Numbered from the stretch's first letter, positions 10,489 to 64,000 are shown. The stretch: DNA of 64,000 bases from Alphaproteobacteria bacterium (GCA_964291415.2 OZ219918.1:832001-896000); one strand, 5' to 3'. The notes: a model not told the origin generated them from the sequence alone. Made by a program: numbers and translations.

Positions 10489-12495
<2,007 letters not shown>

Positions 12496-45258: not shown

Positions 45259-45311
45259 ATGATCACTGACGCTTCCGTTTCCACGCCCAATCATTATTCG
45301 GTCAGCGTCGA

Positions 45312-45947: not shown

Positions 45948-46021
45948 GCGGGTGTAGTTCAATGGCAGAACGAAAGCTTCCCAAGCTTTAGACGAGGGTT
46001 CGATTCCCTTCACCCGCTCCA
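45948..46021 (+). tRNA. tRNA-Gly (CCC)
   Basis: GCGGGTG acceptor stem, TTCCCAA anticodon loop, GGTTCGATTCC, TCCA end. Confidence 0.95.
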
Positions 46022-47009: not shown

Positions 47010-48505
47010 GACGCGAGTCCGAGTTTGGCGGCGAGTCCTATGCGCTGCAGCTTGCCGGTTGCTCCCTTGGGGATCTCGTCGAGGATAATCACCTGGCGGG
47101 GAACCTTGAAGGCAGCCAGACGAGTCCCGGCAAAGGATCGCAGCGCCGCTTCCGAGGGAGCTTCCCCGTCTCGTGGCACGACGGCAACGGCAACTTCTTC
47201 GCCGAGCGTGGCATGGGGAACGGCGAATGTGACCGCCTGATCGACAGCGGGGTGTGCCATAAGGACCTCGTCCACCTCCAGCGGGCTGATCTTCTCGCCT
47301 CCCCGGTTGATGATTTCCTTGAGCCGGCCGGTGAGCCACAGGTAGCCGCTTTCATCAAGCAGACCCTGATCACCCGTGCGGAACCAGCCATTCTCGAAGG
47401 CTGCACCGTTGGCGGCATCGTTGTTCTCGTAGCCTCCGGTGACACTGGCGCCCCGGATCACGACCTCGCCGGTTTCTCCGGCTTGAAGGAGATGACCATC
47501 CTCCTCATCCATGATCGCCACCTCCGGCCCTGCGGCGATGCCTACCGAACCGGCATGCCGTGGCGCCGGGGGAAGAGGGTTGGAGGTCATCTGATGGGAT
47601 GCCTCGGTCATGCCGTAGGATTCGATCACCGGGCAGCCGAAGGTTGCTTCGAGTTCTTCCATGACCCGCGATGGCAGCGACGCCGAGGATGACCGGATCA
47701 GTCTCAGATCCAGTGAGGCCAGCGCCGCGGCGTTGCGCGGCGCGCGGGCGAGAATCGCCTGGTGCATGGTTGGAACGGCCGTGTACCACGTGGGCCGCAC
47801 GTCCTCGCACCAGGAGAAAAACCTCAGGGGATTGAATCCCGGAGCGCAGTGAACACTGGCGCCGGCCCGCATGGTCGAGAGCACGGCCCCGACAAGTCCG
47901 TGGATGTGGAAAAGAGGCATGATGTTGAGCGCCCGGTCGTCGGGAGAAAGGGCGAGGCTCTGCGCGATGTTCGCGGCCGAGGCGGCGAGATTGTCCCGCG
48001 ACAACGGCACGATCTTGGGTCGCGACGTGGTTCCCGAGGTGTGAAGCACGAGCGCCGTTCCGGCATCGTGGGTGACCGTGCGACCGCCCGGTTCCTCGCG
48101 CAGGCGCAACGTGAAGGTACCGGCGCTGGCGTTCTCTTCAACGCACATCTCGGCCAGTCCCATGCCCAGATCGCGCGCCACGGCGACGGCGTCGGATCCT
48201 GATCCCTCCTCGACAATCAGCAGCCGGGCATCGAGATCCTCGAGATAGAACCTGAATTCGTCCCCGCGATAAGCCGGATTGAGCGGGGCGGCCGTCAGAC
48301 CCGAGGCCACTCCGAGAAAGGCCGAGGCCATCTCGGGACCATTGGGAAGGACAAGGGCAACGCGATCGCCGTCTGCGAGACCGGCCTGACCGAGAACGCC
48401 CCGGGTGTCGGCGATCTGCCGGGCCAGGTCGCGATAGCTCGTCGAACGACGCCCGGGAGCACCGATGGCCGGAGCATCGGCTGCGCCCATGAGGTCGACC
48501 ATCAC
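47006..48505 (-). CDS. acyl-CoA ligase (oxalate-CoA ligase-like)
   Basis: HTSGTTSRPK, MPLFHIHGL, WYTAVPTMHQ, RSSSASL, YGMTEASHQM, TGKLQR. Confidence 0.88.
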   Translation of the reverse strand: MMVDLMGAADAPAIGAPGRRSTSYRDLARQIADTRGVLGQAGLADGDRVALVLPNGPEMASAFLGVASGLTAAPLNPAYRGDEFRFYLEDLDARLLIVEEGSGSDAVAVARDLGMGLAEMCVEENASAGTFTLRLREEPGGRTVTHDAGTALVLHTSGTTSRPKIVPLSRDNLAASAANIAQSLALSPDDRALNIMPLFHIHGLVGAVLSTMRAGASVHCAPGFNPLRFFSWCEDVRPTWYTAVPTMHQAILARAPRNAAALASLDLRLIRSSSASLPSRVMEELEATFGCPVIESYGMTEASHQMTSNPLPPAPRHAGSVGIAAGPEVAIMDEEDGHLLQAGETGEVVIRGASVTGGYENNDAANGAAFENGWFRTGDQGLLDESGYLWLTGRLKEIINRGGEKISPLEVDEVLMAHPAVDQAVTFAVPHATLGEEVAVAVVPRDGEAPSEAALRSFAGTRLAAFKVPRQVIILDEIPKGATGKLQRIGLAAKLGLAS

Positions 48506-49515
48506 GCGTGCCTGAGTCGTTCCTGGCGGGCCGACTCAATCATCGGACCAAGAACCTTGTCGTGAAACCTGTCGCAGCCGATGCAGAGATTCCGGTAGGG
48601 ACGGCCCTGCGGAGTGTCGATCTCGGATTCGGCGAGGAAGCGTTCCGTCGTCCAGCCGAACGCGTGTCCCATGGTCTCCGGTTTTCCCCGGTTGATGGCC
48701 TCGTAGACCGGATGATCGCGCAGGCTGTCGATGATGTCATCGAGATGTTCATGAACGAGGTTGCCGATGGGAAAGCGCGTCTTGAGGCAACAGGGATAGA
48801 CATTTCCGGTCGGCTCGATGGAGACCTCCGAACCCGTCCGCCCTTTCTCGAGAAAGTTCAGTCCGCCCGACCAGGCGTTGCAGAAGTTGTCGTCCATACC
48901 GGCACGCGACAGTCCGTTCTTCCAGGCGCGTCCGCGCGGCCACAGCTTGCCGATCCAGGTATCCTCGTTGGCTCCGAAGATGTTGAAGAGAGGCGGGCTG
49001 TCATCACCAGGGGGCCCGTTTCCGGCTTCGCGCACGCCCGCGGCCTCGAACATGGCGAGCAGCTTTTCGCGCAAGGCCCTGGCACGTTCCTCGCGGTTGA
49101 TGCCGACATGGTAGCTGTCGAAGCCGGAGACCGAGACCATGCTCACGTTCCTGGCGAGGAGCTCGTCGAGAATGCGTTCGGTCAGGCGGTCCCCGGTCGT
49201 CTGCACGACGAGGCGCACTTGGCCACGATAGCGGGAATGGATCTGCTCGAGGGCCGGATAGAGCACGGATCGGCGCACCGGCTCCAGCAGCACCTCGCCT
49301 CCCGAGACGATGATGCGTCCCGCCACCGCCTCTCCGGTGGGGGCGGTGACCATCATGCTTCCCGGAAGATGATCGATGATCCGGGGAACATTCGCTTGCG
49401 ACTGCTCCACAACCCGCTGGAGTTCGTCCCGGACATAGGGGCGGAACCGGTCATCGTAGCAATGACGGCAGCGCCGATGGCACAGCCATGTCAGCACAAA
49501 GTAGATCGATTCCAT
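48502..49515 (-). CDS. radical SAM protein with SPASM/twitch-like C-terminus
   Basis: CHRRCRHC (CxxxCxxC), SGGE, FC..GNVYPCC..CIGC. Confidence 0.88.
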   Translation of the reverse strand: MESIYFVLTWLCHRRCRHCYDDRFRPYVRDELQRVVEQSQANVPRIIDHLPGSMMVTAPTGEAVAGRIIVSGGEVLLEPVRRSVLYPALEQIHSRYRGQVRLVVQTTGDRLTERILDELLARNVSMVSVSGFDSYHVGINREERARALREKLLAMFEAAGVREAGNGPPGDDSPPLFNIFGANEDTWIGKLWPRGRAWKNGLSRAGMDDNFCNAWSGGLNFLEKGRTGSEVSIEPTGNVYPCCLKTRFPIGNLVHEHLDDIIDSLRDHPVYEAINRGKPETMGHAFGWTTERFLAESEIDTPQGRPYRNLCIGCDRFHDKVLGPMIESARQERLRHA

Positions 49516-50032
49516 GCGTTGCCGCCCGATGCACAAGGGGAGGCGTCCATATGACCTGCATTTGCCTCATGACGCAACATCGCGCAGGTCGTGCCGCTGC
49601 GCGGCCGTCTGCCGGTCTCGTGCCACAGTTCTGACGCATCATGCTCCGGCCGCATCCTCTCAAGGGCAATGTCCTCGCCTGCAGACGGTCTGCTTGAACC
49701 ACGTCTCCCGCAGGTTGAATGCCGAGCTCGCAGACAAGAATCGTGACTGCGGCCCTGGATCGCGGCTGTCCTCGCAGTTCACAGGGCTGGTCTCTCCATC
49801 GTTGTTGTGGAGGTGACGCGGCGAGGGAGTGATGACACGACACATCCGGGTCAAGGCCGCCTGACGATGCCTGACACGCGGCGTGGCAAGCGAGCGGATG
49901 GGAGGGTGTGACGCCTTGATCGGGTGGGCAAGGCGCATCGCGACGGATGAGCGCTGCGCCTTGTCGTTGAATGAAGGAGCGATCGATCCAGCGACAGGAT
50001 CCCGTTGATCTTCGCGTGCGACTGCGGCAGCA

Positions 50033-50049
50033 TGATTGCATTGCAATCA
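50033..50049. promoter_or_regulatory. perfect palindrome, likely TA autoregulatory operator
   Basis: TGATTGCA-T-TGCAATCA, ending 28 nt upstream of the antitoxin ATG. Confidence 0.6.
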
Positions 50050-50077
50050 GCGCAGGTCTGGATGCCGGGGCAAGGAC

Positions 50078-50320
50078 ATGGCAAGCATTACAATCCGCAA
50101 TCTTGATGACGAGGTGAAAACGCGTCTGCGTGTGCGCGCCGCCGCGCACCATCGCTCCATGGAAGAGGAGGCGCGACAGATTTTGCGGGAGGCAGTCGGA
50201 AAACCGGCCGTTCCGGCAAACCTTGGTGAAGCCATTCATCGCCGTTTCGCCGCATTGGGCGGGGTGGAGCTTGACCTTCCGCCGCGCGAGGGAATGCCTG
50301 AGCCTCCACACTTCGATTGA
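50078..50320 (+). CDS. FitA-like ribbon-helix-helix antitoxin
   Basis: MASITIRNLDDEVKTRLRVRAA.H.RSMEEEARQIL. Confidence 0.9.
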   Translation: MASITIRNLDDEVKTRLRVRAAAHHRSMEEEARQILREAVGKPAVPANLGEAIHRRFAALGGVELDLPPREGMPEPPHFD

Positions 50321-50331: not shown

Positions 50332-50754
50332 ATGGTCCTGGTTGATACGTGCCTCATCTCGGAACTGATGCGCTTGTCTCCCGACCCGGCCGTTCTGGAT
50401 TGGTTTGGCAGCAGAGATGCAGCCGACCTGTATTTCAGCGCGGTCGGCGAGGCAGAACTGCGGCGCGGCGTAGCCATCATGCCCGAAGGCAAGCGCCGCC
50501 AAGGCCTCGTGGCAGAGATCGACGCGATGATCGCGGACGATTTCAGGGAACGGGTGTTGCCCTTCGACAGCGCAGCTTCCGTCGCCTTCGCGGCCATTTT
50601 CGCCCGGCGTCACGCCGCCGGTCGACCTATCGGGTTCGCCGATTGTCAGATCGCCGGAATTGCGTATTCACGGAGGATGGCTGTGGCAACGCGCAATGTT
50701 CGCGACTTCGAGGACCTCGGCCTCGACATCGTCAACCCCTGGACGGTGGCTTGA
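50332..50754 (+). CDS. vapC: VapC/FitB PIN-domain toxin
   Basis: LVDTCLISE, EAELRRG, DCQIA, ATRNVRDF. Confidence 0.9.
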   Translation: MVLVDTCLISELMRLSPDPAVLDWFGSRDAADLYFSAVGEAELRRGVAIMPEGKRRQGLVAEIDAMIADDFRERVLPFDSAASVAFAAIFARRHAAGRPIGFADCQIAGIAYSRRMAVATRNVRDFEDLGLDIVNPWTVA

Positions 50755-50922
50755 GCAGTACGGCGCATACCCTCGCGCATCAAGATTGACCCGCTGCTCA
50801 AGAACAAAGGCTGGAACACGGCACAGGCAAGGCCCTGGACGATCCCGTGCCATCCTCCTTGATGGTGACCCAGCCGCCATCCACCCGCCCCGGTACCATG
50901 TGAGAGTGCCGCATGGGTGACC

Positions 50923-52206
50923 TCAGCGCTCTTCGTTTCTCCGTTCGTGCAGGGAGGCGTCGAGGATTTCGACGGGATGCACGCACGGCACGCCGGTGGA
51001 TGCGGTGATGTGCCACCGGCAGGTCTCGCTGTCGCAGACGACGGCATCCGGTGCAGAGTCGGCAATCCTGTCGATCAGGGTCTGACCGACCGCCGTGGCG
51101 ATGTCGTAGCGGTCACGGTCGTAGCCGTAGGTGCCGGCTACGCCGCAGCAATCCGATTCGGAGACCTCAATCGACAGGGATGGCACGAGACGAAGCAGTT
51201 CGAGCGCCGGCACGCCCATGTCATGACCGCGCAGCTGACATGGACCGTGATAGAGAATGCGCCGGGGCAGCGGGCTGAGGACCGAAGGCAATCGATCGAG
51301 GTGGCGGTCGCGCAGGAATTCACAAATGTCGGTGACGGCATTCGCTACCGACCGTGCGTCGTCATCGTGCAGATCGAGATAGGCAGCGTACTTCTTCCGA
51401 AGCGTCAGGCTGCAGCTGGTCGAGGTACACAGGATGGGTCTTCCCGCACCGGCCGCGGGAGCGAGGCCGCGAACAACGCCGTCGGCCCGGTGACGCGCGG
51501 CGCTCCATTCGCCGCTTGACAGCATGGGCAGCGAACAGCACGCATCCGTCGGCGCTTCGACCGCATATCCGAGTCGATTCAGCACCCGGACCGCCGCGAT
51601 CCCGACTTCGGCGTCGTAGTGGGCGACCGCGCATCCCGTGTAGTAGGCGACGACAGGGCCGTCAGGCTGACGACGCGTCGACAGCCAGCGGCGGAATGCG
51701 GAACCGGAGACCTGCGGTAGAGGCGCGTCCCGGTGAATGCCGAGCAGGCGATGGACGACCGCACGCAGCAATCGGTTGCCCAGCAGGCGGTTGGCGAGAG
51801 CGGGGACGGCACCGAACACCCGGCCGATCACGTCGGGCCGGTTCAGAAGGCGTTGACGGAGAGGGGGAGTGTCGCCGGCGTCAACGGCAGCCGCTCTGGC
51901 GATGGTGATGATATCGGAGATCGCGACTCCGTTCGGACAGACGCTCGTGCAGATTCCGCAGCCGCTGCACAGTCTCGACGATCGTTCTTCGACGGTATCG
52001 ATGACACGAAACCGCTGTGCTTGCGGTCCGGTGTACTTTGGTCCCGGGAAGAGTTCCGTGACCGATGCGACGGGGCAGTAGGCTCGACAGATGCCACACT
52101 TGGTGCAGTGGTCCATGGTCCGGAGCACCGCGTCGAGACCGAGTTCGTGGCGCTCGTCGGCAGGGCGGCTCGCGGGAGCGGGAGGCGATGACCCGGGCAT
52201 CGTCAT
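50923..52206 (-). CDS. anaerobic glycerol-3-phosphate dehydrogenase subunit C-like Fe-S protein
   Basis: CTKCGIC...CP, FPGPKYTGP, CSGCGIC...CP, two CCG-type domains. Confidence 0.85.
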   Translation of the reverse strand: MTMPGSSPPAPASRPADERHELGLDAVLRTMDHCTKCGICRAYCPVASVTELFPGPKYTGPQAQRFRVIDTVEERSSRLCSGCGICTSVCPNGVAISDIITIARAAAVDAGDTPPLRQRLLNRPDVIGRVFGAVPALANRLLGNRLLRAVVHRLLGIHRDAPLPQVSGSAFRRWLSTRRQPDGPVVAYYTGCAVAHYDAEVGIAAVRVLNRLGYAVEAPTDACCSLPMLSSGEWSAARHRADGVVRGLAPAAGAGRPILCTSTSCSLTLRKKYAAYLDLHDDDARSVANAVTDICEFLRDRHLDRLPSVLSPLPRRILYHGPCQLRGHDMGVPALELLRLVPSLSIEVSESDCCGVAGTYGYDRDRYDIATAVGQTLIDRIADSAPDAVVCDSETCRWHITASTGVPCVHPVEILDASLHERRNEER

Positions 52207-53696
52207 TCCTCGGCCATCTCGCAGACGATACCGACACATCGGCGCCATTCGGTCCACGCGCCTTCGCGCTCGTCGGCTCCCAGTGCCGGTTCGAACGTCG
52301 TTGCGCTCACCGGCATGGCGGCAACGTCCGCCGTGGTAAGCTGTTTCGCTCCGATGCCCGCGAGCAATGCTGCGCCGAGGGCCGTCATGTCGGGTTCGTC
52401 CGAGACCCTGATGGGAACTGCGAGCAGGTCGGCCTGGCGTTGCATCAAGTAGCGGTTCGCTGTCGGTCCGCCATCAGCCCGCACTTCGTCGAGGCCGCCG
52501 CCCAGGCGTTCATCAAGCGCCTGCACGATGCCTGCGCACTGGAACGCGATTCCATCGAGGAGGGCCCGGGCGAGGTGTCCGACACCGGTATCGAGGCCGA
52601 TGCCAAAGGTGCATGCGCGGGCGCTCGTTTTCCAGTACGGCGCGGACAGGCCCGCGAGACTGGGTACCATCACGACTCCGCCGCTGTTCGGGACGCTCTC
52701 GGCCAGGCTCGAGGAACCGGCTGCCGACGGGAGAAGGCCGACGTCCACAGCCCAGTCGATCGCCGAGCCGACGGAGAACACCCCGCCTTCGATCGTGTAG
52801 TCGACACCGGCGCCCAGGTCCCAGGCGATGAACACCGCCAGCCTGCCGTCTGGTGCGACTGGATCGCGACAGGTGTTGACTTCGATGAAGGCGCCGGTGC
52901 CATAGGTGGCCTTGACGACCGAGGAATCCCAGCACCCCTGCGCAAACAGCGCCGCATGGGCGTCGACGGCGTCGGCCGTGATTCGGACCGTTGGGGCGTC
53001 GATCTCCGGATGACTGATCACCCCGAAGTCGCCGACAGTTGGTCGGACCTCCGGAAGCAAGTCGATGTCGAGGCCGAACGCATCCAGCAGATCGGGGTCC
53101 CATTGTGCCTGGTACAGGTTGAGCAGCGCAGTGCGCGATCCGGTAGCCGCGTCCGTGGCGTGCACGGCGCCGCCGGTCAACCGCTCGATCACGTAGGAGT
53201 CGGTGCCGCCGAGTCTGAGCGAGCCGTCTGCCCGCGCGGTGGCTACGTCGTCGACGGATTCGATCAGCCATCGGAACTTCGAGGCGGAGAAGTAGGGGTC
53301 AAGAAGGATCCCGGTCCGGTCACGGACCAGATCTCCGACCCCGTCACGGGCGAGCGCATCGCACATGGCGGCCGTTCGTCGATCTTCCCATGAGATCGCG
53401 GGAGCGAGTCCGTTACTTCCTCCCGCCGACCACGCCATGCTGGTTTCGCCCTGATTGGCGATTCCGACTCCCGCAACGTCGCGCCACGTACGGCCCGCCG
53501 CCTCCAGCGCGGCCGCGGCTGCCCCGATGCTGGTCGCCAGGAAGTCTTCGGGGTCGTGTTCGACCCAACCGGGCCGGGGTGTGCGCTTCGGCATCGGAAC
53601 CGAATGGGTGGCGAGTTTTCCGACATGGGGATCGAAGACGAGGGCCGTGGTCGTCGAACCGCCGTGGTCGATTCCGACATAGAGTCCGCTTTCCAT
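52203..53696 (-). CDS. FGGY carbohydrate kinase, divergent glycerol-kinase paralog
   Basis: DHGGSTT, NQGET, WEDRRT, DPYFSASK, KATYGTG, DGG. Confidence 0.85.
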   Translation of the reverse strand: MESGLYVGIDHGGSTTTALVFDPHVGKLATHSVPMPKRTPRPGWVEHDPEDFLATSIGAAAAALEAAGRTWRDVAGVGIANQGETSMAWSAGGSNGLAPAISWEDRRTAAMCDALARDGVGDLVRDRTGILLDPYFSASKFRWLIESVDDVATARADGSLRLGGTDSYVIERLTGGAVHATDAATGSRTALLNLYQAQWDPDLLDAFGLDIDLLPEVRPTVGDFGVISHPEIDAPTVRITADAVDAHAALFAQGCWDSSVVKATYGTGAFIEVNTCRDPVAPDGRLAVFIAWDLGAGVDYTIEGGVFSVGSAIDWAVDVGLLPSAAGSSSLAESVPNSGGVVMVPSLAGLSAPYWKTSARACTFGIGLDTGVGHLARALLDGIAFQCAGIVQALDERLGGGLDEVRADGGPTANRYLMQRQADLLAVPIRVSDEPDMTALGAALLAGIGAKQLTTADVAAMPVSATTFEPALGADEREGAWTEWRRCVGIVCEMAEE

Positions 53697-53699
53697 CAC

Positions 53700-54941
53700 C
53701 TATCCCTCCAGGTACGCATGGGCCGACCGGGCGGCGAGCCAGCCGGTGACGATGGCGACGCCTTCCGCGGACGCTTCCAGTGCGGGATTCCAGTGGGCAA
53801 GCGTTTGGCCCGTGACGTAGACGTTCTCGAGCGATCGCGATTCGGAAGTCAGTGGCCGCAGCGCGTAGTCGGTTTCCACTCCGGTGCGATGCAGGGCGTC
53901 CAACGATGCGCCGGCGTTCGCGGCGTTCAGGGGCGCCGTCTGCCGGACCGGAAGATCGAAAACCGTTTCCCGAATTTCGCCGCGGGATTCCACGTTGAGT
54001 CCGCCCATGGCGACGCCTCCGGTGGCAACGATGAACGCTGACGCGGTGTGCACGCGCCCGGCGGTGTCAACGACATCGATAGGATGTCCGTCCTCCGCCT
54101 TCGTCCCGGTCACGCGGGTGCCGATGTGGATGGGGGTGCCTTGTCCTGCGATAGCGCGATCCATCGTCCGCTGCAGACGCATCCCGGGAACGCTCGGCGG
54201 CAGGGTCGGCACCTCAAGGCACGGCCTGCCGAGTGCCTGCTCGGCGGACCGCCTGACGCGGGCATGGTCGGAGATGCCCAACACGGCCGGGAACAGGATC
54301 AATTCCGCGGAATCCGGCATCCGGGACCCGAGGTCGCGGAAATAGCCGCAAAGATCGGGGTGACGATCGAAGCTGCGGGCGAGGTCGACCGACTCGGATC
54401 CGCCGCCGGGCGGAGGCGCCTCGATGACCACGACGTCCGATCCCAGGCGGCGCAGTCCATTTGCGGTCAGGTCGGCGGGAAAGTCGCGGTGGGAGCGAAA
54501 ACGCACGACGGCAGCCCTTCGGCCCTCAATCGCCGCCACGAGCGCCTGCGAAGGAGTCGGGCCGTACGTTGGAACGCCGAGGCCGGCGGGGGTGAGCGTC
54601 TGAACATTGCAGCCGTTTCGGTTGAATCCCGCGCCGATTCCGTCGGTGGCGGAGAAGAACCACTCCAGGGCATCCTGAATCACCGATTCACCGACAATGC
54701 GGTATGGATGCCGTGCGTGGAGGTCCGGCATGCCTTGGCCGGGCGACGAGAGAATCCCGCCATTGGCGTCGAACCCGCCGGCACAGCATGCGTACCCGAG
54801 TACGCGGATGCCGCCTGGCGCATAGTGCAGCGAGCCCCGCCCCGCGGAGAGAATTCGCACCGAACGACCGAGTTCCAGCAACCGCAACGCGGCGACGAGT
54901 GCGTCGAGCTCGTTGCCGACGATGACGACATCGGACTTCAT
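53700..54941 (-). CDS. anaerobic glycerol-3-phosphate dehydrogenase subunit B-like
   Basis: HPYR.VG, PAVLG, EVPTLPPSVPGMRL, ATGG, GVAIVTG. Confidence 0.85.
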   Translation of the reverse strand: MKSDVVIVGNELDALVAALRLLELGRSVRILSAGRGSLHYAPGGIRVLGYACCAGGFDANGGILSSPGQGMPDLHARHPYRIVGESVIQDALEWFFSATDGIGAGFNRNGCNVQTLTPAGLGVPTYGPTPSQALVAAIEGRRAAVVRFRSHRDFPADLTANGLRRLGSDVVVIEAPPPGGGSESVDLARSFDRHPDLCGYFRDLGSRMPDSAELILFPAVLGISDHARVRRSAEQALGRPCLEVPTLPPSVPGMRLQRTMDRAIAGQGTPIHIGTRVTGTKAEDGHPIDVVDTAGRVHTASAFIVATGGVAMGGLNVESRGEIRETVFDLPVRQTAPLNAANAGASLDALHRTGVETDYALRPLTSESRSLENVYVTGQTLAHWNPALEASAEGVAIVTGWLAARSAHAYLEG

Positions 54942-56506
54942 CGGTAGTCGTCCGTCGGCAGGAGATCGTCGGTCAGGCGGATTCCGAGGATGTCGCGGTG
55001 CACGGTGTCGCTCAGCAGCGCCTGCCGTGCCTGATCACCCCACGCGGTCTTGCAGACTCCCTTGAGACGTTCCGTCCAGAATCGACCAATTGACTCTTCG
55101 GCGGAGAAGTCCGTGTCGGCATTCGCAAGAAGGTCGGCGGCGCGCACGGCACAGAAGGTGCCTTGACAGGGTCCGAACCCGATACGCAGGCGCCGACGCA
55201 GGTCATGCAGTCGGGAGATGCTCGCGTCCCCGATCGCTTCGGTGACGGTCGACCGATCGACCGCTTCGCACTCGCAGAGTGTCCTCGCCTGGGTCTGCGT
55301 CGCCTCGGCGGTCATGTGACCGGCGACGGGACGCCAGGCGGCTTCACGGCGCTTCGGGGCGACCGGGGACGTTGCGGTCAGGCAGGTTGTAGTGATGCCG
55401 AAGTGCCGGCAGACAAGGTCGGCCACGTCTTCGGCCATGGACCGGTGCGTGGTCAGCGAACCGCCACACACGGTGAAGAACCCACGGGCACCGCCATTCG
55501 CGTGGTCGATGACCATGTGCCGCCGCGGCAGGGGTTTCCCGGGAGGCCAGTCCGGCAGTTTCACGAGCGGCCTCACGCCGGCCCAGGCGCGAAACGCGCG
55601 GCGATCCCGAATCCCCGGCAAGAGCGGCTCGGCGCCGTCCAGGAGTTCCTGAACTTCTGTCGGCTTGACCAGGGTCGTGTCCGGACTGTCAACCACCTCC
55701 GATGTCGTGCCGAACAGCGATACGGTTCCGGTCGGCACGATGATGTCGTGACTGCCTGCGGGGCGGCAGCGGTTGATGACCTGTCCGACAAATCGGTGGG
55801 AGAGGACGATGATGGCGCCCTTGGTCATTTCCAGCTCGACGCACTGGCCCGCTAGGGCTGCGACCCGGCCCGACCAGGCGCCGGCGGCGCTGATGACAGC
55901 GTCGGTCTCGATTCGTGTTTCGCCACCGGCGCCGGCGATTCGCACTGCGCGGACAACGCCACCAAAGACGTCGATTCCGGTGACCTGATGCCGGGTCAGC
56001 ACCTTCCCGCCGCGCCGGGTCACGTCTTCAGAGAGGCGGTTCACGAGTCGCCATGGATCGATGGTCGCGTCGGGAACCGAGAAGGCGCGGCGGATGCTGC
56101 GACTGATGCAGGGTTCTTCTGCCATGACACGGTCGGGATCGAGCTCTTCGCAGGGAATGGCCGCCTGCCTGCATCCCTCGATAAAGCGTTCCGGAAACTC
56201 GGGAGGATCTTCGTCGAGGGACACGAACAGGCCTCCCGTGCTCTCGACCGCGTCGGGGACGACTTCGGCCACAGTCCGACGCTCGCGCATGCACTCCGCG
56301 GCATAACCCGAATCGGAAACCGCGTAGCGGGCGCCGCTCTGCAGCATGCCGTGGAATCGGCTGCTGGTGCCGGAGCCAAGGTCGCCGAACTCGACCAGGG
56401 TGACGTTGAGGCCCCGCATTACGAGGTCGCGGGCAACGGCACAACCCGTGGCACCCCCGCCGATAACGACGACCCGCAGGTGACGGTGTGGTGTGGAACT
56501 CGTCAT
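54938..56506 (-). CDS. anaerobic glycerol-3-phosphate dehydrogenase subunit A-like flavoprotein
   Basis: GGGATG, HGMLQSGARYAV, INRCRP, AGVRPL, C-terminal CECE..GPCQG.FC. Confidence 0.85.
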   Translation of the reverse strand: MTSSTPHRHLRVVVIGGGATGCAVARDLVMRGLNVTLVEFGDLGSGTSSRFHGMLQSGARYAVSDSGYAAECMRERRTVAEVVPDAVESTGGLFVSLDEDPPEFPERFIEGCRQAAIPCEELDPDRVMAEEPCISRSIRRAFSVPDATIDPWRLVNRLSEDVTRRGGKVLTRHQVTGIDVFGGVVRAVRIAGAGGETRIETDAVISAAGAWSGRVAALAGQCVELEMTKGAIIVLSHRFVGQVINRCRPAGSHDIIVPTGTVSLFGTTSEVVDSPDTTLVKPTEVQELLDGAEPLLPGIRDRRAFRAWAGVRPLVKLPDWPPGKPLPRRHMVIDHANGGARGFFTVCGGSLTTHRSMAEDVADLVCRHFGITTTCLTATSPVAPKRREAAWRPVAGHMTAEATQTQARTLCECEAVDRSTVTEAIGDASISRLHDLRRRLRIGFGPCQGTFCAVRAADLLANADTDFSAEESIGRFWTERLKGVCKTAWGDQARQALLSDTVHRDILGIRLTDDLLPTDDYR

Positions 56507-56507
56507 G

Positions 56508-58523
56508 TCATGCCACGGCCGTTGAGCGGAGCCCAAGTTCGAGCTTGCGGCGCTCGGCCCAGGCGTTGATCAAGCGATCAGCGGCGATCGCGATGAATGC
56601 CACGCAGATACCCGCGGTGACGCCCCGTCCGGGATCGACCTTGGAGAGGGCGATCAACGTTTCCTGCCCCAGATCCCGCGTTCCGACAAGCGCCGTGATC
56701 ACCAGCATGCTGAGCCCCATCATCAGAGTCTGGTTCACTCCGAGCATGATGTCGGGCAATGCCAGCGGCAGCTGCACGCGCCGCAGTATCTGGCCGCGGG
56801 TGCAACCCATGGCCCGAGCCGCCTCGACGAGGTTCGAGGGCACCTGGCGAATGCCGCTGTCCGTGTAGCGAATTGCCGGCACGATCGCGTAGAGCACGAT
56901 GGCGATCATTGCGGAGAAGTCGCCGACACTGAACAGCATGATCACGGGAATCAGGTACACGAACGCTGGAAGCGTCTGCAGAGTATCGATGACGACCTGC
57001 ACGATCTGGTGAACTCTCTCGTTTCCGGCTGCCACGATGCCGATGGGAATGCCGATCAGACTGGCGAGGAACACGCAGACGCCGACGAGGTAGGCGGAAA
57101 TCATCGCCTTTTCCCACAGCCCCACGGCGGCGATGAAGGCGATCAGGGAAGTGCTCAGAATCGCCAGACGAACGCCGCCCAGGTGGAATCCGATGGCGCT
57201 CACCACCAACACGACGCTGAGCCAGGGCAGGGACAGCATGAAGCTCTTGAACGGCTTCAGGAGGTAGATGAAGAATGCGTCCCGGACGGCGCCGATGTAC
57301 ACGTAGAGATTGATGTTGATCCAGTCGATGATGGTGTCCCAGAACCGGCCGGTGGTGACCGTCCAGTTCTCCGGAATCTGGGCGAATGCGGGAATCCAAA
57401 TTCCGGCGACCGTGACGGCGATGCCGAAAAACACGGCTCCCGCGAGCAGATGGGATCCGGCGATGCGTCCGTGCCCCCGTGTGCTGTGGGCGGGACGGCG
57501 GGCGGCGAGACGCTGACTCATGCGGTCCAACACGATGGCGACCAGAGTGATGGAGATTCCCGCTTCGGCACCCTGCCCGATTCGGAGCGCCTTCAGGGAC
57601 TGCCAGACATCGAACCCGAGGCCTCCGGCCCCGATCATCGATGCGATGATCACCATGTTCAGCGTCAGCATGATCACCTGGTTGACGCCAACCATGACGC
57701 GCGGCCGAACTGACGGCAACATCACCTTCCACATCATTTGCCGGCGCGAGCAACCGGCCATGCGGCCGAATTCCATGACCTCGCTGCTCACCTGGGACAG
57801 CGCGACCCTGGTCACCCGCGCCATGGGAGGCAGGGCATAGATCAGCGTAACCACCATGGCGGCGGCGGGTCCGTAACCGAACAGCATCAGCGCGGGCACG
57901 AGGTAGGCGAACACCGGCATCGTCTGCATGAAGTCGAACACCGGTGTCAGTATCCGCTCGACTGCCCGCCACCGATGTGCCGCGATACCGAGTGCGACAC
58001 CCGTTGCGATTCCGATCATCACGGCGACGATGATGGATGCGAATGTCAGCATGGTGCTGTGCCACAGCCCGATGAACGCGACGTAGAGAAAGGACAGCGT
58101 GATGAACGCGGTCAAACGCCCGCTGCCCAGGGACGCTCCCAGCGCGGCGAACACCGCAATCAGGCCCAGCCACGAAAGGGGCGGAACGTGGATGGCCGAC
58201 CCGTCGCCGCCGTCGAACGTGAATCCGGTGGCGAGCAGTCCCTTGAGGAACAGCATCGGAGCCTCGAGCACGGTCCCGAACCCGCGGGTCAACTCCTTGA
58301 ACGTGAACAGACCGAAATCAGCTTCGTTTACCAGCCAGTTGATTGATCGGGTCAACCCGTCAGCGACAGGCACGACCCAGCCGCCGGGATACACGTCGAT
58401 CCAGGGAAGCACAGGAGCGAGGAGTGCGATCAGGGTGGTCGCGACGGCCGCAAGGGCAATCAGCAGCGCGCCTCGGCCGGGCCGAAAGGGAAATGATGGG
58501 CGATGTGCGCCAACGGCCGTCAT
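56508..58523 (-). CDS. glycine betaine/proline-type ABC permease, two fused TM modules
   Basis: two copies of QTxP.F.YL.P and GVNQ motifs; 671 aa. Confidence 0.9.
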   Translation of the reverse strand: MTAVGAHRPSFPFRPGRGALLIALAAVATTLIALLAPVLPWIDVYPGGWVVPVADGLTRSINWLVNEADFGLFTFKELTRGFGTVLEAPMLFLKGLLATGFTFDGGDGSAIHVPPLSWLGLIAVFAALGASLGSGRLTAFITLSFLYVAFIGLWHSTMLTFASIIVAVMIGIATGVALGIAAHRWRAVERILTPVFDFMQTMPVFAYLVPALMLFGYGPAAAMVVTLIYALPPMARVTRVALSQVSSEVMEFGRMAGCSRRQMMWKVMLPSVRPRVMVGVNQVIMLTLNMVIIASMIGAGGLGFDVWQSLKALRIGQGAEAGISITLVAIVLDRMSQRLAARRPAHSTRGHGRIAGSHLLAGAVFFGIAVTVAGIWIPAFAQIPENWTVTTGRFWDTIIDWININLYVYIGAVRDAFFIYLLKPFKSFMLSLPWLSVVLVVSAIGFHLGGVRLAILSTSLIAFIAAVGLWEKAMISAYLVGVCVFLASLIGIPIGIVAAGNERVHQIVQVVIDTLQTLPAFVYLIPVIMLFSVGDFSAMIAIVLYAIVPAIRYTDSGIRQVPSNLVEAARAMGCTRGQILRRVQLPLALPDIMLGVNQTLMMGLSMLVITALVGTRDLGQETLIALSKVDPGRGVTAGICVAFIAIAADRLINAWAERRKLELGLRSTAVA

Positions 58524-58819
58524 CGGCCGCGATCGATGTCCGACGGTCCGTCGCGTTGAACAACGCTCATGATCTTCTACCCGGCTACCCGGTACGCTGG
58601 AATGCAGGGTACTCCGGCAAGCGGCGCGGAAACCATGTTTCGGCCGGCAGTCGCAAGAGTCCGGACGGGAAGGCAGTGAGCCCGAGAGACGTCATGGCGT
58701 CCGGGATGGCCGGCTGGTTCAGGGCGCATCGCAGGCTCCTGCTCGGGAGGCCGGCGCCGGACCTTCGTCCGGCGCCGGCCTCCCGAACCGAACCGCCCTG
58801 TCGTGCTCTGAGAACGGAC

Positions 58820-59791
58820 CTATTCGAGCCAGGATTTCCAGGTTTCCTCGTTGGCTTCGATCCACTGCTCGGCAACTGTCCGGGTCGGCACGCCATCCAC
58901 GTCGCTCATGTAGACCATTTCACCCATGGTCTTGCCGTCGAGCTGGAACTTGCGCCAGACGTCATAGGCCTTCGGCCAGATGGATTCGCCACCCTTCCAG
59001 GCGGATTTCCACATGTGGCCACGTGGACGTCCGCAGTCGTACGCCATCGTCGAATTGGGTCCCCAGGACGGGTCGTCGTAGCAGGCGTCCTCGTACTCCG
59101 GCCACTCGACGAACTCGCCTTCGTAGAGCGCAGGCAACCAGAACGGTTCCCATGTCCAGCCGACGATCGGCTGCTTGCGTTTGATGGCCGCGGTGAACTC
59201 GGCGGTCAGGGCGCCGTCGCTCCCTGCGTGAATCACCTCGAAGGGCATGTCCAGCGCGGCGACGCGCTCCGCATCGTGACCACCCCACTCGATGGGACCG
59301 CTCAAGAACCGCGCCTTGGGCGCTGTCTCGGCGACCGACAGGGCCTCCACGCAATCCGGTTCAAGCAATGCCTTCCAGTCGGGGAGTCCCGGACACACGT
59401 CCTTGACGTACATCGGGTACCACCAGTCCTCGTTCACGGCGATTCCCATGTTGCCCATGTTGAGGACCTCACCGCTTCCCCAGGCGTCGGCCATCGCCGC
59501 CTTGGCTGTCGTATCCCATCCGGGGGATCCGATGTGCAGATCACCGGCTTTCAGGCCTGCGAACTGACCGAGGTAGTCTGCCGGAGTGTACTCTACGTTG
59601 TAGCCGAGCTTTTCGATCAGCGTCCCGTAGATGTACATAATGATGTTGTCGCCGGAGTAACCCATGATGACGAGCTTGATCGGATCCTTGGATTCCGGGG
59701 TTTCGGCACTCGCAGGCGTCATGAATCCGGACCCTGCCATGAGCCCTGCAATCACCGCTGCCGCCATGAATCGACGTGTTTTCTGCAACAT
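58820..59791 (-). CDS. quaternary-amine-type ABC substrate-binding protein (ProX/TmoX-like)
   Basis: signal peptide, PESKDPIKL, ADYLGQF, EDWWYP, CPGLPDW, CYDDP.WG, DCG.P; GAGGAGG RBS. Confidence 0.85.
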   Translation of the reverse strand: MLQKTRRFMAAAVIAGLMAGSGFMTPASAETPESKDPIKLVIMGYSGDNIIMYIYGTLIEKLGYNVEYTPADYLGQFAGLKAGDLHIGSPGWDTTAKAAMADAWGSGEVLNMGNMGIAVNEDWWYPMYVKDVCPGLPDWKALLEPDCVEALSVAETAPKARFLSGPIEWGGHDAERVAALDMPFEVIHAGSDGALTAEFTAAIKRKQPIVGWTWEPFWLPALYEGEFVEWPEYEDACYDDPSWGPNSTMAYDCGRPRGHMWKSAWKGGESIWPKAYDVWRKFQLDGKTMGEMVYMSDVDGVPTRTVAEQWIEANEETWKSWLE

Positions 59792-59954
59792 GGCCACCTC
59801 CTCGATGAACTCGTGCGTGCTTGTGCTCCCGATCGTTGGGATGCTGAATGCATGTCAATAGTATCCCGGTTTCGAAAAAGAACAAGCAATGAAATGCGTG
59901 TTATCGATTGTTTTGGAGTGACGAATGATCGACTCGGATGTACAGAACAGACAT

Positions 59955-60755
59955 ATGGGATCTGGAGTCAGGAACACCGCGGGCCGTCGCCTCGAGATTC
60001 AGAGACGACTGCTGGTTGAAGGGGCAGTCACCGTCGAGGCGCTGTCGCGTGATCTCGGCGTATCGGAGGCTACGGTCCGGCGCGACCTTACGATTCTCAG
60101 CGAAGAGGGATCGGTTCGCCGAACCCATGGAGGTGCGGTCATCGAGGCGCCGCGCGGTGCCGACCAGGCTTTCGCCCTGCGCGAGCAACTCGACTCGGAT
60201 GCCAAGAGGCTCATAGCCCGCTCCGCGCTGTCTCTGGTCGATCCCGATCAGACGCTGTTCATGAACGACGGTTCGACCGTCCTCGCGCTTGCGAGGGAAC
60301 TGGTCGCTGAGCGTGTCGCCTTGACCATCGTGACACCTGGCGTGAACATCGCGACGTACCTTTCGGAGAATCCCGCCGTCACGGCCTACCTCCTAGGCGG
60401 TCGGGTTCGGCACCGCACGCTCGGAACCTCGGGCGGCTTCGCCGAGGAGATGCTCGCTACGTTCAATGCCGACATCGCGTTCATCGCAGCCGAAGGGTTC
60501 TCGGTGCGCGACGGACTGTCGTTTTCATACGAGTCCGATGCCCGGATCGCCCGCCTGATGAGCCAGCGGGCGACGAGAACGATCGTTCTGGCGACGTCGC
60601 GGAAACTGGACCAGAGAGATCGAATTGTCGCCTTGCCTTCTGCGGCGGTCGACACTCTGATTACCGATTGTTCCGACCATGAGCGGCTGGCGAACTTCTC
60701 GAGTGCGGGTATCGATGTGGTTTCCTGTGCCGGAACAAGCGGAGCAACGCGCTGA
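59955..60755 (+). CDS. DeoR/GlpR family transcriptional regulator
   Basis: LGVSEATVRRDL HTH, RTHGGA, NDGST; divergent from the transporter operon. Confidence 0.92.
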   Translation: MGSGVRNTAGRRLEIQRRLLVEGAVTVEALSRDLGVSEATVRRDLTILSEEGSVRRTHGGAVIEAPRGADQAFALREQLDSDAKRLIARSALSLVDPDQTLFMNDGSTVLALARELVAERVALTIVTPGVNIATYLSENPAVTAYLLGGRVRHRTLGTSGGFAEEMLATFNADIAFIAAEGFSVRDGLSFSYESDARIARLMSQRATRTIVLATSRKLDQRDRIVALPSAAVDTLITDCSDHERLANFSSAGIDVVSCAGTSGATR

Positions 60756-61103
60756 GTTTCGGGTAGGCGCCTTCCGGTACCTGTTGTGTCCGGAGTTGGA
60801 CCTTCAAGATCCGAGTGGTGTTGACGTCGCGCGCATCAGGTCATGCGGAAGCACGGCGAGAGCTGCCAGGCCCTTCACATGGTCCGTATCCTGCCTGGCG
60901 GCCGCAATAGCCCACGCCTGCGGGTGTGTGCCGCCGAGCGCTATCGCCCGATGGAAGGCGAAATGCAGCAGAATCCCGAGCTGCCGGTCAGAGAACCGGC
61001 TGTCACGGTGGACCTTGGTGAAGCCTCTCATCGGTGAGTGAACGCCGACTATGGATTTGGGCGGCCCGCGAAGATGCGGAAGGTCGCCTTTCCGGGAAAA
61101 AGG

Positions 61104-61393
61104 GGGCAATTCCCATGAACTGGGCGAGTGCGCGGTTTACTGCGATCATGTCGGCATCGTCGAGATGTCCGAAAACCTGATCCACCATGACGTAGGATCG
61201 CACGCGCAGACCATTGCCTTCGGAGGGTGCAACCGGAACACGGGATCAGCCGAGTGTCCAGCGCCATCGAGTTCGGTAGCGCGACAGTGATCGAGGGTGT
61301 CAGATCGGCGAAATGGTGACTGAATCAGCAGGGGGGACGCGACCTACCGTGTTCACTCTGCAAGGCGATGCTGGCGAAGTCGTCGCCCCTCAC
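61104..61393 (-). pseudogene. PemK/MazF toxin remnant
   Basis: fragments VRGDD..IALQ..GRSRP, PSEGNGLR..SYVMVD, FGHLDDADMIAVNRALAQFMGI across frames; GTGA overlap with antitoxin. Confidence 0.7.
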
Positions 61394-61638
61394 TCGCGGT
61401 GTCCGGCTTTGAGGGCGTCGAGGTGCTCAGCGAGATCGGCTGCGGCGGCGTCCATGAACTGCAAGAGTTCCGGGTCGGCGCCGTTGGCTTCGTCGACGAT
61501 CGCTGCCTGGCGGCCGCACTCTTCGACGAAGTCGGGGGCCCGGGTGTCGGGAACCCGGATCTGGACCTTCAGGCCTTGGGCCCTGCGTGCGGCTCTGTGC
61601 TTGTCCGCGCATTGCGCGCCGGTGGATGCAGAGGACAT
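61390..61638 (-). CDS. MazE-like (DUF3018-type) antitoxin, possibly degenerate
   Basis: KHRAARRAQGLKVQIRVPDTRAPDFVEEC.RQA. Confidence 0.75.
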   Translation of the reverse strand: MSSASTGAQCADKHRAARRAQGLKVQIRVPDTRAPDFVEECGRQAAIVDEANGADPELLQFMDAAAADLAEHLDALKAGHRE

Positions 61639-61980
61639 GGTGCCGCTCCTGTCGGATCAACGCACTTTACGTGTAGCGCATTTGGTTGTTGCCAGAAGCG
61701 TCCACGGTTCCTCGACGTTTTTCGCGCCGACGTTTCGCGGGGAGCCAGCGCTGGATCCCCGTTTCCGTCATGACCGCATCCACCTTCGCCTCCGGCACCA
61801 GGCCTTTCGGAATCTGCATGTCGAGCCGTACCGTCGGCTCGTCTCCATTGTGGCCCTGGCCCATGAGCCCCCCTTGTCTTCGAATCGGGCGCCGCCCCGA
61901 AAGCACGTTCCCGCCACCGTCTCCTCGTGGTTCTTCGCGGGCGTCCCGGGTCCTGTCGTGACGATTGTCACTGACCTGCG

Positions 61981-64000
61981 TTATCCGCGCATGCGAGTGC
62001 CTCGGGGATCATAGGCTGCCTGTTTCAGGGGGCGCATCGGGAGTTTCCTTTGGCCCAGCCCGATCTCGTAGGATCCTTCGAGCAGCGTCCGGAACGGCGC
62101 ACCACGCGGGCAGGCGACGTAGCCCATGCTGAGCGAAAGCCCGGTCCGAAATCCGCGGCAACCCGATGTGGTGTGCCCGGCGAGGACCCCGTTGCGATAG
62201 ATGGGTTCATCGTGGAGCAGCATGGGCTCGGCATCTTCGACGGCGAACATCAGGAGGTGTCGTTCCACACCCGTCTCGCGCCGTCGATGCAGCGCGTTGC
62301 AACCGAGGAATCCGCCCGGCTTGTCCCAGGCGACGGCGAACGCTAGACCGGCTTCAAGGGGTGTGGAGTCCGGCCCCAGTTCGTGCCCCCAGTGACGGAA
62401 GCCCTTTTCGATCCGGCAACTGTCAAGGACCAGCATTCCCGCGTGTGAGAGACCATGGCCTGCGCCGGCCTCAAAGAGGGTCTCGTAGACATGACCGGCG
62501 TACTCGACCGGCACACCAAGCTCCCAGCCCAGTTCGCCGGCAAAGCTGATTCGGGTGGCGCGCACCGGCGCCATTCCCAGGGTGATGCGCTGCATCGTTG
62601 CAAACGGGAACGCCTCCGGAGACAGATCAGCATCCGTCACCCGAGACATCAAATCACGGGACAGAGGCCCCATGAGGCCGAGGACACACTCGGTCATGGT
62701 GGCATCACCGATTGTGACGTCGAGTTCCAGCCTGGCTCGTTGTCGTTCGATCCATGCTAGATCCTTCTGGCGTGTCGCGGCGCCGCTCACCATGCGAAAG
62801 CGTGTCTCGCTTTCACGCGTGACCGTGACGTCGGCCTCAATTCCGCCGTGGCGGTTCAGCATCGGCGTGTAGACGACCTTGCCCTCGGCAACGTCGACGT
62901 CGTTGGCGCAGAGGTGCTGCACCAGGACAAGGCAATCACGCCCGGCAATGTCGATTTTTGTGAAGGGAGAAAGATCAAGGAGCGCGACCCGGTCACGGAT
63001 CGCTGCACCCTCTCTGGCGGCAGCCGGCCACCAGCACTGCGGACCATAACTGTAGCGGAACGATCGTTCATCCCTCGTGGTGGCGAACCAGAGGGGTCTC
63101 TCCCACCCAGCGGCCTCGCCAAGGAAGGCGCCGGCCCGTTCGTGGCAGTCGTGCAGGACGGAGCGACGGAGGCCCCGCGCCGTGGCCATCTGCCGCAACG
63201 GCCAGTGCATGGCCAGTTGATTCGCGACGGCTTCGTCCATGCGCTGAACGAGAAACGATTTCGTTGCGGCGCTTCGGTCGAATCGGGCGATATCGACCTC
63301 CCAGAGATCCATCGGAGGCTCGCCCGCATCGATCCATTCTGCCATGGCCTTGCCGACTCCCGCAGACGACATCATGCCGATGGAGTTCATGCCCGCCGCG
63401 ACATAAAAGCCACGCAGGTAGGGCGACTCTCCCATGAGCTGCCTGGTGTCGGGAGTGAAGCTCTCCGGCCCGTTCATGAAGTGCTGAATGCCGGTTTCGG
63501 AGAGACGGGGCATGCGGTGCAGCCCTGCCTTCATGAAGGGTTCAAACTGATCCCAGTCCTCGGGCAACTCGAGGAATGCACGATCACCATCAGGACCCGT
63601 GGCATCCCACACCTTGGGGCAGGGTTCGAATCCGCCCAGGACCACCTTTCCCGTGTCGCCCTTGATGTAGATACCGTTGTCGAGGTCGCGAAACACGGGC
63701 AACGGATCGGTGAGTCCGCTCATGGATTCGGTGACCACGTACATGTGTTCGACGGCCTGCAACGGCACGGGAACCCCCGCCATGCGCCCGATCTCGCGCG
63801 CCCAGGCACCCGCACAGTTAACCACGCTCTTGCAGCGAATAGTCTCGCCGCTGGAAAGCCGGACGGCGCGGACGCAGCCGTGTTCGGCGACGATGCCCGT
63901 ACAGGCCACGTTCTCGGCAATGCGTATGCCTCCGGCACGCGCACCCTTCGCATAAGCCATACAGAGATCGACAGGATTGGCCTGGGCATCCTTGGCGACC
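61981..64000 (-). CDS. GcvT-family sarcosine/dimethylglycine dehydrogenase-like protein, 5' part outside window
   Basis: NGPESFTPD, GWERP.WF, GGIEADVT, GELGWEL, RIEKG..HWG, YDP.G.RMR. Confidence 0.9.
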   Translation of the reverse strand, partial: VAKDAQANPVDLCMAYAKGARAGGIRIAENVACTGIVAEHGCVRAVRLSSGETIRCKSVVNCAGAWAREIGRMAGVPVPLQAVEHMYVVTESMSGLTDPLPVFRDLDNGIYIKGDTGKVVLGGFEPCPKVWDATGPDGDRAFLELPEDWDQFEPFMKAGLHRMPRLSETGIQHFMNGPESFTPDTRQLMGESPYLRGFYVAAGMNSIGMMSSAGVGKAMAEWIDAGEPPMDLWEVDIARFDRSAATKSFLVQRMDEAVANQLAMHWPLRQMATARGLRRSVLHDCHERAGAFLGEAAGWERPLWFATTRDERSFRYSYGPQCWWPAAAREGAAIRDRVALLDLSPFTKIDIAGRDCLVLVQHLCANDVDVAEGKVVYTPMLNRHGGIEADVTVTRESETRFRMVSGAATRQKDLAWIERQRARLELDVTIGDATMTECVLGLMGPLSRDLMSRVTDADLSPEAFPFATMQRITLGMAPVRATRISFAGELGWELGVPVEYAGHVYETLFEAGAGHGLSHAGMLVLDSCRIEKGFRHWGHELGPDSTPLEAGLAFAVAWDKPGGFLGCNALHRRRETGVERHLLMFAVEDAEPMLLHDEPIYRNGVLAGHTTSGCRGFRTGLSLSMGYVACPRGAPFRTLLEGSYEIGLGQRKLPMRPLKQAAYDPRGTRMRG

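Follow-up and report, generated by a model that had tools for sequence, protein, structure and literature searches.

Three described systems come closest to the locus reported here. In the glp regulon of Escherichia coli, GlpK acts with GlpD or GlpABC under the DeoR-family repressor GlpR, and ATP-dependent phosphorylation is followed by quinone-linked oxidation on flavin adenine dinucleotide (FAD)/Fe-S enzymes. Erythritol catabolism in Brucella involves the GlpD-like dehydrogenase EryB and the regulator EryD. EryA is classed among the FGGY kinases, as an erythritol kinase (PMC3245297). The third system, TmoXWV, imports trimethylamine N-oxide (TMAO) in Ruegeria pomeroyi and SAR11. A gene cassette with likenesses to all three was found at positions 50923-60755 of a 64,000-nucleotide stretch of DNA from Alphaproteobacteria bacterium (GCA_964291415.2, OZ219918.1:832001-896000), hereafter called the window. 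Its members were named SBP' (binding protein), permease, GlpA', GlpB', Kin' (FGGY kinase), GlpC' and DeoR gene, and were assigned to families by domain matches (Pfam) and by NCBI curated models (NCBIfam/TIGR) with their cut-offs. The cassette stands about an even chance of being a catabolic unit for a small, positively charged glycerol analogue, a substrate class suggested by the residues that line its predicted binding pockets.

With the glp regulon the cassette shared the same four enzyme families, a DeoR-type regulator and, by prediction, the succession of ATP-dependent phosphorylation and quinone-linked FAD/Fe-S oxidation. It differed in that the kinase gene lay between B and C, that kinase residues Arg83, Gln246, Gln104 and Gln11 as well as a His and a Lys of GlpA were replaced, that the importer was a cation-type ATP-binding cassette (ABC) system and not GlpF or GlpT, and that it coexisted with canonical genes. 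With TmoXWV it shared a binding protein matching structure 4xz6 with W102, E131, W177 and W222 kept, a fused permease and, in the cassettes of relatives, a ProV-type ATPase. Unlike TmoX, SBP' invariantly displayed Tyr for W55, Ala for F106 and Trp for F220; the importer was operon-linked to a kinase and a dehydrogenase, not to TMAO demethylation genes, and the window copy came without an ATPase gene. The Brucella pathway, likened here by description, similarly couples a non-glycerol polyol, an FGGY kinase, a GlpD-family flavoenzyme and a dedicated repressor, but the cassette dehydrogenase is of the three-subunit GlpABC type, the kinase is GlpK-derived and the importer indicates a cationic substrate. 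By defining residues or cut-offs, the cassette fell outside GlpK, GlpA, GlpB and TmoX. Its features were as follows.

59925-60755, plus strand: DeoR-family regulator, divergent from the operon (HTH_DeoR 2.5e-15, DeoRC 1.3e-40)
59798-59924, no strand: control region between the divergent genes, candidate operator half-sites being at 59906-59913 (GATTGTTT) and 59831-59837 (GATCGTT)
58820-59797, minus strand: SBP', TmoX-like periplasmic substrate-binding protein (OpuAC domain 1.5e-36)
58745-58784, minus strand: GC stem-loop, perfect over 18 bp, in the SBP'-permease spacer (from folding energy against shuffles)
56508-58523, minus strand: fused double ABC permease of 671 amino acids, choline/ProW/TmoV type (two BPD_transp_1 domains)
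54938-56506, minus strand: GlpA', FAD/[2Fe-2S] catalytic subunit with altered active site (DAO 1.7e-51; Fer2_BFD, BFD-type [2Fe-2S])
53700-54941, minus strand: GlpB', second flavoprotein subunit (FAD_binding_2 1.8e-18)
52203-53699, minus strand: Kin', FGGY kinase from a separate clade derived from GlpK (FGGY_N and FGGY_C)
50923-52200, minus strand: GlpC', Fe-S/CCG membrane-proximal subunit (two CCG stretches and a 4Fe-4S dicluster domain)

The gene and family calls agreed with the order announced in the first-pass annotation (a note made earlier by a model from this DNA), namely SBP-permease-glpA-glpB-kinase-glpC with the kinase between B and C and a divergent DeoR gene. Its claim of tight coupling was equally confirmed, genes from the permease onward being translationally coupled. 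The permease stop TGA (56510-56508) is followed by one nucleotide and then by the GlpA' ATG at 56506; an ATGA overlap, deduced from the coordinates, joins GlpA' and GlpB'; the GlpB' and kinase genes abut; and the GlpC' ATG at 52200 starts two nucleotides past the kinase stop. The longest open reading frame (ORF) of GlpA' starts with TTG at 56536 and that of GlpC' reaches 52257, the ATGs at 56506 and 52200 being the likely starts. SBP' and permease were spaced by ~296 nucleotides. The window copy counts seven genes; there are eight in relatives, counting the ATPase.

A pattern scan of one genome per species (185,579 species) returned 23 loci. Among these, 21 belonged to the Kin' clade, while L020 and L021 were canonical-like, with 36% and 31% identity. 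Related loci were compared by tblastn with the proteins of the window; they were not all independent, L001/L009 and L007/L018 being near-identical pairs and L003 and L022 originating from one metagenome-assembled genome (MAG). Every related locus covering the enzyme genes displayed the order GlpA'-GlpB'-Kin'-GlpC', and the kinase gene sat between B and C in all of them as in the window, whereas glpA-glpB-glpC are contiguous in E. coli. GlpB' was 34-53% identical in related loci. DNA upstream of GlpA' was available for 17 loci, 15 of which carried the permease (65-76% identity); SBP' was present in the same 15 less L007, whose contig ends inside the permease. The transporter was thus co-conserved with the enzymes in 15/17 informative loci, in answer to a check of neighbourhood conservation proposed in the first-pass annotation, and the pathway was not refuted on the ground named there, a transporter not co-conserved with the enzymes. 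In the two others, different transport genes were encountered: the enzymes of L008 were followed by a PhnS2/T2/U2 ABC system of the 2-aminoethylphosphonate type (7553-11542; 504, 518 and 779 bits, all above cut-offs), while in L019 a TAXI-TRAP system came before the enzymes, together with an O-acetylhomoserine sulfhydrylase-like gene.

L008 and L019, having the enzymes without this transporter, would be expected if two unrelated modules had been brought together, a TMAO/choline importer merely adjoining a glycerol-type enzyme operon; the fact that TmoX relatives bind TMAO and choline (PMC8918994) would fit as well. Such a juxtaposition is nevertheless highly improbable. The linkage held in 15/17 loci from two proteobacterial classes, a single nucleotide separates the permease stop from the GlpA' start, and the SBP' pocket displayed an invariant signature of its own, unlike that of TmoX.

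The solved structure nearest to SBP' was 4xz6 (E 7e-72, 245.7 bits, residues 24-325), which is TmoX of R. pomeroyi with bound TMAO and a pocket formed by W55, W102, F106, E131, W177, F220 and W222 (PMC8918994). The corresponding positions of SBP' read Y, W, A, E, W, W and W, four out of seven matching TmoX and three differing; three cage Trp and the Glu were retained, with Tyr and Trp at two other cage positions. This signature was shared by 15/15 sequences, from the window and from 14 related loci (67-82% identity). Elsewhere, the window's genome encodes seven TmoX-like paralogues with the reading W-W-(I/M/L)-E-W-(M/F)-W. SBP' would therefore keep the cation-pi cage and the hydrogen-bonding Glu, while F106A is predicted to open one wall and to enlarge the pocket. 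SAR11 TmoX also binds choline, at 2.5 µM (PMC8918994), and a choline-like N+-C-C-OH ligand with an extra substituent could fit the SBP' pocket. The importer had initially been placed in the quaternary-amine family: its cation type, distinct from GlpF, GlpT and Ugp, was retained here, but TmoX-like (TMAO type) is a more precise designation than betaine type.

The permease matched the choline ABC permease model TIGR03416 twice, at 413.5 (cut-off 363). A ProV-type ABC ATPase gene was found beyond the DeoR gene in 9/9 related loci scanned, five further DeoR loci lying outside the scan; the ATPase of L001 scored 359 on TIGR01186 (cut-off 326.6). The lack of this gene from the window copy had been overlooked in the first-pass annotation. 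The position occupied by the ATPase in relatives (60756-61980) was represented by ~1.2 kb without recognisable gene, and tblastn of a relative's ATPase against 60601-62100 uncovered no remnant at E up to 10. A 233-amino acid ORF at 61313-62014 had no Pfam family, displayed only sub-threshold Atlas matches of 0.77 and is unlikely to be a gene. In the rest of the window's genome, the closest ATPase homologues had 49-57% identity. The permease of the window copy would have to borrow a genomic ATPase, or else the importer would be inactive.

Kin' displayed an architecture combining FGGY_N with FGGY_C, as well as the catalytic Asp D245, and scored 434.9 bits on the GlpK model TIGR01311, under the curated cut-off of 590.35. 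A separate canonical GlpK at 5630-7123 (minus strand), already pointed out in the first-pass annotation, reached 616 bits on the same model. The canonical enzyme displayed DQSTT, NQRET, WQD and DQQAA where Kin' displayed DHGGS, NQGET, WED and DAHAA; all four motif changes had been anticipated, and they were clade-wide (19/19). The GlpK signature comprises R83, E84, Y135, D245 and F270 (PMC3245297), positions that read G-E-Y-D-F in 19/19 clade kinases and R-E-Y-D-F in six canonical GlpK. Over the positions taken from the literature (10, 11, 13, 83, 84, 103, 104, 135, 245, 246, 247 and 270), the string D H G G E W E Y D A H F was obtained for all 19 clade rows and D Q T R E W Q Y D Q Q F for the 6 canonical GlpK. 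Gln11→His, Thr13→Gly, Arg83→Gly, Gln104→Glu, Gln246→Ala and Gln247→His were accordingly found in 19/19 clade kinases and 0/6 canonical ones. Because they were identical in all 19 clade members, at only 51-67% identity, these substitutions are judged not to be chance drift.

In the glycerol kinase of Plasmodium (PfGK), glycerol is hydrogen-bonded by Arg83 and Gln247, the former being paired with Glu306 as well; the Gln246 position corresponds to PfGK Gln247 (PMC2680290). The Glu aligned to PfGK Glu306 (E304) was invariant in the new clade. With Arg83 changed to Gly, Gln104 to Glu and the Glu partner of Arg83 kept, the pocket of Kin' would have lost one positive charge and gained one carboxylate, another carboxylate being freed. 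Two glycerol contacts would be swapped for small residues, while the catalytic Asp and the residues holding the C3 skeleton stay.

A maximum-likelihood tree was constructed from 30 kinases: 19 clade members, canonical GlpKs encoded in the same genomes or in E. coli, and outliers. L007 (near-duplicate of L018) was omitted, as were L017 and L019 (matches in pieces of less than 430 residues). The Kin' clade formed a single branch with support 98/91 and a long stem of 1.4, within which Alpha- and Gammaproteobacteria were intermixed. L003 and L022, two complete cassettes on two contigs of one MAG, formed a tight pair (100/100), which may reflect duplication or a mixed bin. Kin' was also searched, by word index, against 5.8 billion proteins; the best 120 clusters listed were all 53-95% identical to it. 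Such names as were given among these read 'glycerol kinase' or 'FGGY family carbohydrate kinase'; taxa, where named, were Rhodospirillales, Kiloniellales, Dongiaceae, Parasphingorhabdus and Mesorhizobium. The nearest solved structures were glycerol kinases (2dpn, E 1.5e-113). The window's genome also encoded a third GlpK-like kinase (G000:C2:171209-172651, minus strand), which scored 490.8 bits, below cut-off, and displayed Arg83→Thr and Tyr135→Thr. Similar genes were found in two same-genus genomes, and this kinase may be another specificity variant.

GlpA' scored 522.8 bits on TIGR03377 (cut-off 552.8) and 410.6 on a second model (cut-off 425), while the best GlpB-model score of GlpB' was 197 (cut-off 327). 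GlpC' scored above the cut-off of NF008369 (396.1 vs 278) and below that of TIGR03379 (273.6 vs 279.9). Three of the four enzymes (Kin', GlpA' and GlpB') thus remained under curated cut-offs, and identity to canonical GlpA and GlpK was ~35-39%. An alignment was made of 18 GlpA' rows, eight canonical GlpA (E. coli and seven genomes, 842-863 bits) and five intermediate GlpA, from which duplicates of the window and of L007 were dropped and L017, too short for inclusion, was left out. It displayed 161 columns conserved within both groups, 47 of which differed between them. GlpA' was set apart from all 13 other GlpA by Gln66 (for His), Ser360 (Lys), Ser262 (Asp), Trp162 (Phe), His340 (Ile or Phe) and Ala302 (Gly); H364 was also listed as clade-specific.

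The first two of these changes concern the His at the H50 position of GlpD (LLHSG/LIHGG motif) and the Lys of the GGK(L/I)T motif. Gln and Ser occupied these positions in at least 17/18 GlpA' rows, following the conservation threshold used. The motif HGMLQSGARY of GlpA' contains the MLQSG from which the first-pass annotation had rightly read the loss of a conserved active-site His; this residue was kept in all aligned homologues oxidising glycerol 3-phosphate (G3P). Both His and Lys were present in the 13 other GlpA and in the G3P enzymes 3da1, 2qcu (H50, K354) and 2rgh. In M. pneumoniae GlpO, the equivalent His was proposed as the catalytic base deprotonating the C2 hydroxyl (PMC10726252), and the His lost from GlpA' would be this base, equivalence being judged by motif and spacing alone. 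Arg residues aligned to GlpD R54, R317 and R332 were retained, so that a phosphorylated substrate remains plausible for GlpA'.

Glycine oxidase 6j38 also lacks the His, and its AGMLP aligns with the HGMLQ of GlpA'. The substrate might be a 2-amino-1,3-diol (serinol or an N-methylated form) of which Kin' would make the phosphate ester, GlpA' then acting, like other members of the D-amino-acid-oxidase family, as an amine dehydrogenase that yields dihydroxyacetone phosphate (DHAP) and ammonia or methylamine. The residue lost from GlpA' is indeed the one proposed to deprotonate a C2 hydroxyl (PMC10726252). Kinase and dehydrogenase alone would suffice for a route ending in DHAP itself, a kinase that has lost Arg83 and gained a Glu would suit an ammonium at C2, and the cassette of L008 is followed by a 2-aminoethylphosphonate-type system. 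However, the PhnS2T2U2 genes of L008 may be a separate operon, the likeness to glycine oxidase concerns few residues only, and serinol is not, to our knowledge, an abundant marine solute. The cage of four Trp and Tyr in SBP' is TmoX-like and typical of methylated onium compounds, not of primary amines (PMC8918994). This amino-diol variant is held to be unlikely.

The enzymes had been proposed to form a paralogous set distinct from the glycerol genes, and this was substantiated by the scores (434.9/590.35, 522.8/552.8 and 197/327 for Kin', GlpA' and GlpB') and by the canonical genes found alongside. Canonical GlpD (697-783 bits, cut-off 360) and GlpK (683-691 bits) accompanied the cassette in 5/5 related genomes examined, the two genes being adjacent in one of them. 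In the window's genome canonical GlpK was present, and neither GlpD nor a second GlpA was found. The same type of GlpK occurred with neither GlpD nor cassette in 8/22 same-genus genomes, and this type of GlpK is therefore not dependent on the cassette. GlpD matches of six same-genus genomes (G307, G308, G313, G320, G323 and G326) displayed one in-frame TGA, that of G320 also a TAG; these could be pseudogenes, sequencing errors or recoding.

Ordinary glycerol/G3P catabolism has to be weighed against these results. Kin' would then be a divergent glycerol kinase, GlpA'B'C' a G3P dehydrogenase, and the transporter would import glycerol or a solute from which it is released. At the family level, the enzymes indeed match GlpK, GlpA, GlpB and GlpC best, with GlpC' above one cut-off, glycerol kinases are the nearest kinase structures (2dpn, E 1.5e-113), and the window's genome has no GlpD. 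Such a function is nevertheless quite improbable, given that 3/4 enzymes were under their cut-offs, that the signature Arg83 and the His and Lys of GlpA were replaced clade-wide, that the importer is of cation type and not GlpF, GlpT or Ugp, and that canonical GlpK and GlpD were also present in 5/5 related genomes. GlpK without GlpD is moreover common in the genus where the cassette is absent (8/22).

Should the cassette serve a cationic glycerol analogue, this compound would probably be a C3 1,2-diol with a quaternary-ammonium (or sulfonium) group, or glycerol with such a head group at the third position. The solute would be captured by the TmoX-like SBP' with its intact cation-pi cage and imported by the fused permease, powered in relatives by the ProV-type ATPase encoded beyond the DeoR gene and in the window's genome by a borrowed one. 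Kin' would phosphorylate a terminal hydroxyl, and GlpA'B'C' would oxidise the adjacent carbon, electrons passing via the Fe-S subunits (GlpC') to the quinone pool. The regulator probably senses the phosphorylated intermediate, as other DeoR systems respond via such an intermediate.

Several points weigh against this reading. No ABC_tran gene was found within 50923-62000, which leaves the window copy without a cassette ATPase, and the TmoX-like transporter is missing from L008 and L019. Kin' keeps E84, W103, Y135, D245 and F270, so that glycerol activity may persist; GlpC' exceeded one GlpC equivalog cut-off and GlpA' fell short of its own only narrowly. GlpA'B'C' could act as the G3P dehydrogenase of the window's genome, which has no GlpD. 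The significance of Ser360 depends on a substrate-binding role that we presume for the aligned K354 of GlpD. The cassette encodes no enzyme for the steps that would follow an onium-substituted DHAP, and we know of no abundant natural 2,3-dihydroxypropyl-onium compound.

Natural compounds that do unite a glycerol diol and a trimethylammonium group are deacylated polar lipids with a quaternary amine on glycerol, such as glycerophosphocholine and the betaine-lipid head groups GCC, GTS and GTA. Their salvage, with the enzymes acting on the free 1,2-diol, could have been favoured by the small residues at Arg83 and Gln246, which might open a channel for a third-carbon substituent. Free GCC occurs in nature: Symbiodiniaceae and giant clams have yielded it (PMC10362313). 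The cassette did not, however, include any conserved gene for a phosphodiesterase, an acetal hydrolase or ether cleavage. These head groups are carried at sn-3, which would be the opposite stereochemistry to GlpK-like phosphorylation, and the changes in the TmoX-like pocket look modest for a C10 ligand. Head-group salvage is thus rather unlikely.

A more specific form of the cationic reading is possible but doubtful. It supposes that a cationic glycerol derivative is mineralised by marine Alpha- and Gammaproteobacteria along a route new to science, candidates being 2,3-dihydroxypropyl-onium compounds and deacylated head groups of betaine lipids. Once phosphorylated, the substrate would be oxidised to the keto level in a quinone-linked step; this would make the onium bond labile, so that DHAP is released along with a betaine or a methylated amine. 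In that case no GlpK/GlpABC paralogues before Kin' and GlpA'B'C' would have been specialised for cations, and the cassette would serve as a set of marker genes for dissolved organic nitrogen of an unrecognised pool. If the substrate is a cationic glycerol analogue, marine and holobiont communities would be exchanging a labile compound of carbon and nitrogen that is new. GlpK and GlpABC would be families of wider substrate range, with a clean case of specificity switch by few charge-changing residues. Current annotation lists all four enzymes under glycerol genes, which is why metabolic reconstructions treat the cassette as glycerol use. Full-text literature searches, in which most subscription journals and supplements were outside the scope, returned no description of the cassette and none pairing TmoX with a glycerol kinase.

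The DeoR protein remained below every NCBIfam equivalog cut-off, its best score being 156 on GlpR_Halo (cut-off 300). In 15 related loci, orthologues (56-69% identity) were likewise placed divergently at this position. An AAAACRATC/GATYGTTTT-like word occurred in one to three copies in 13/15 equivalent intergenic regions, and four loci displayed two copies of the AAAACRATC-type word 20-21 nucleotides apart. This word is a candidate DeoR operator, offered as a lead only. Across the whole window, the 8-mer operator word was not enriched (2 found, 2.7 expected). A scan for sigma-70 promoters gave 0 sites within 50700-61000.

A search of 40 relatives of the window's organism, of which 22 share its genus, two its family and 16 its class, gave no Kin' match at E up to 1e-150. 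The cassette is therefore regarded as an accessory, horizontally acquired unit. No plasmid match was obtained for Kin' at E up to 1e-100 by tblastn against 72,556 plasmid records. The gene content of the window was alphaproteobacterial-looking (MlaA, an ELM1-like protein, dnaG-rpoD, carAB), with a G+C content of ~65%.

A dimethylglycine-dehydrogenase-like (GcvT-family) gene extends from 61981 to 63960 and beyond. It had been put forward as demethylase-like support for the pathway and was rejected as a member, being found in 0/21 related cassette loci. As one of more than a dozen paralogues in the genome, it adds nothing to the reading.

The segment 58735-58795 around the SBP'-permease hairpin had a minimum free energy of -58.7 kcal/mol (z -9.8), 0/200 shuffles being equally stable, and the hairpin was not followed by a T-run. 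Its arm is unique in the window's genome. The hairpin was absent in 7/8 related loci checked, which is why it is considered specific to the window's genome; L023 has a different hairpin of 15 nucleotides. Just downstream of GlpC', a weak radical-SAM/SPASM protein (48502-49536) was found beside a familyless ORF of 286 amino acids (49451-50311), neither being conserved in related loci.

Some TmoX-like matches elsewhere in the window's genome had identical statistics (C3:28476 and C4:69689; C3:101493, C3:121142 and C5:21501). Together with the stated contamination of 8.99, this suggests repeated or redundant assembly pieces. A low-G+C patch at 44001-46000 (0.537 vs ~0.64) carries a DUF7424 gene at 44329-45258.

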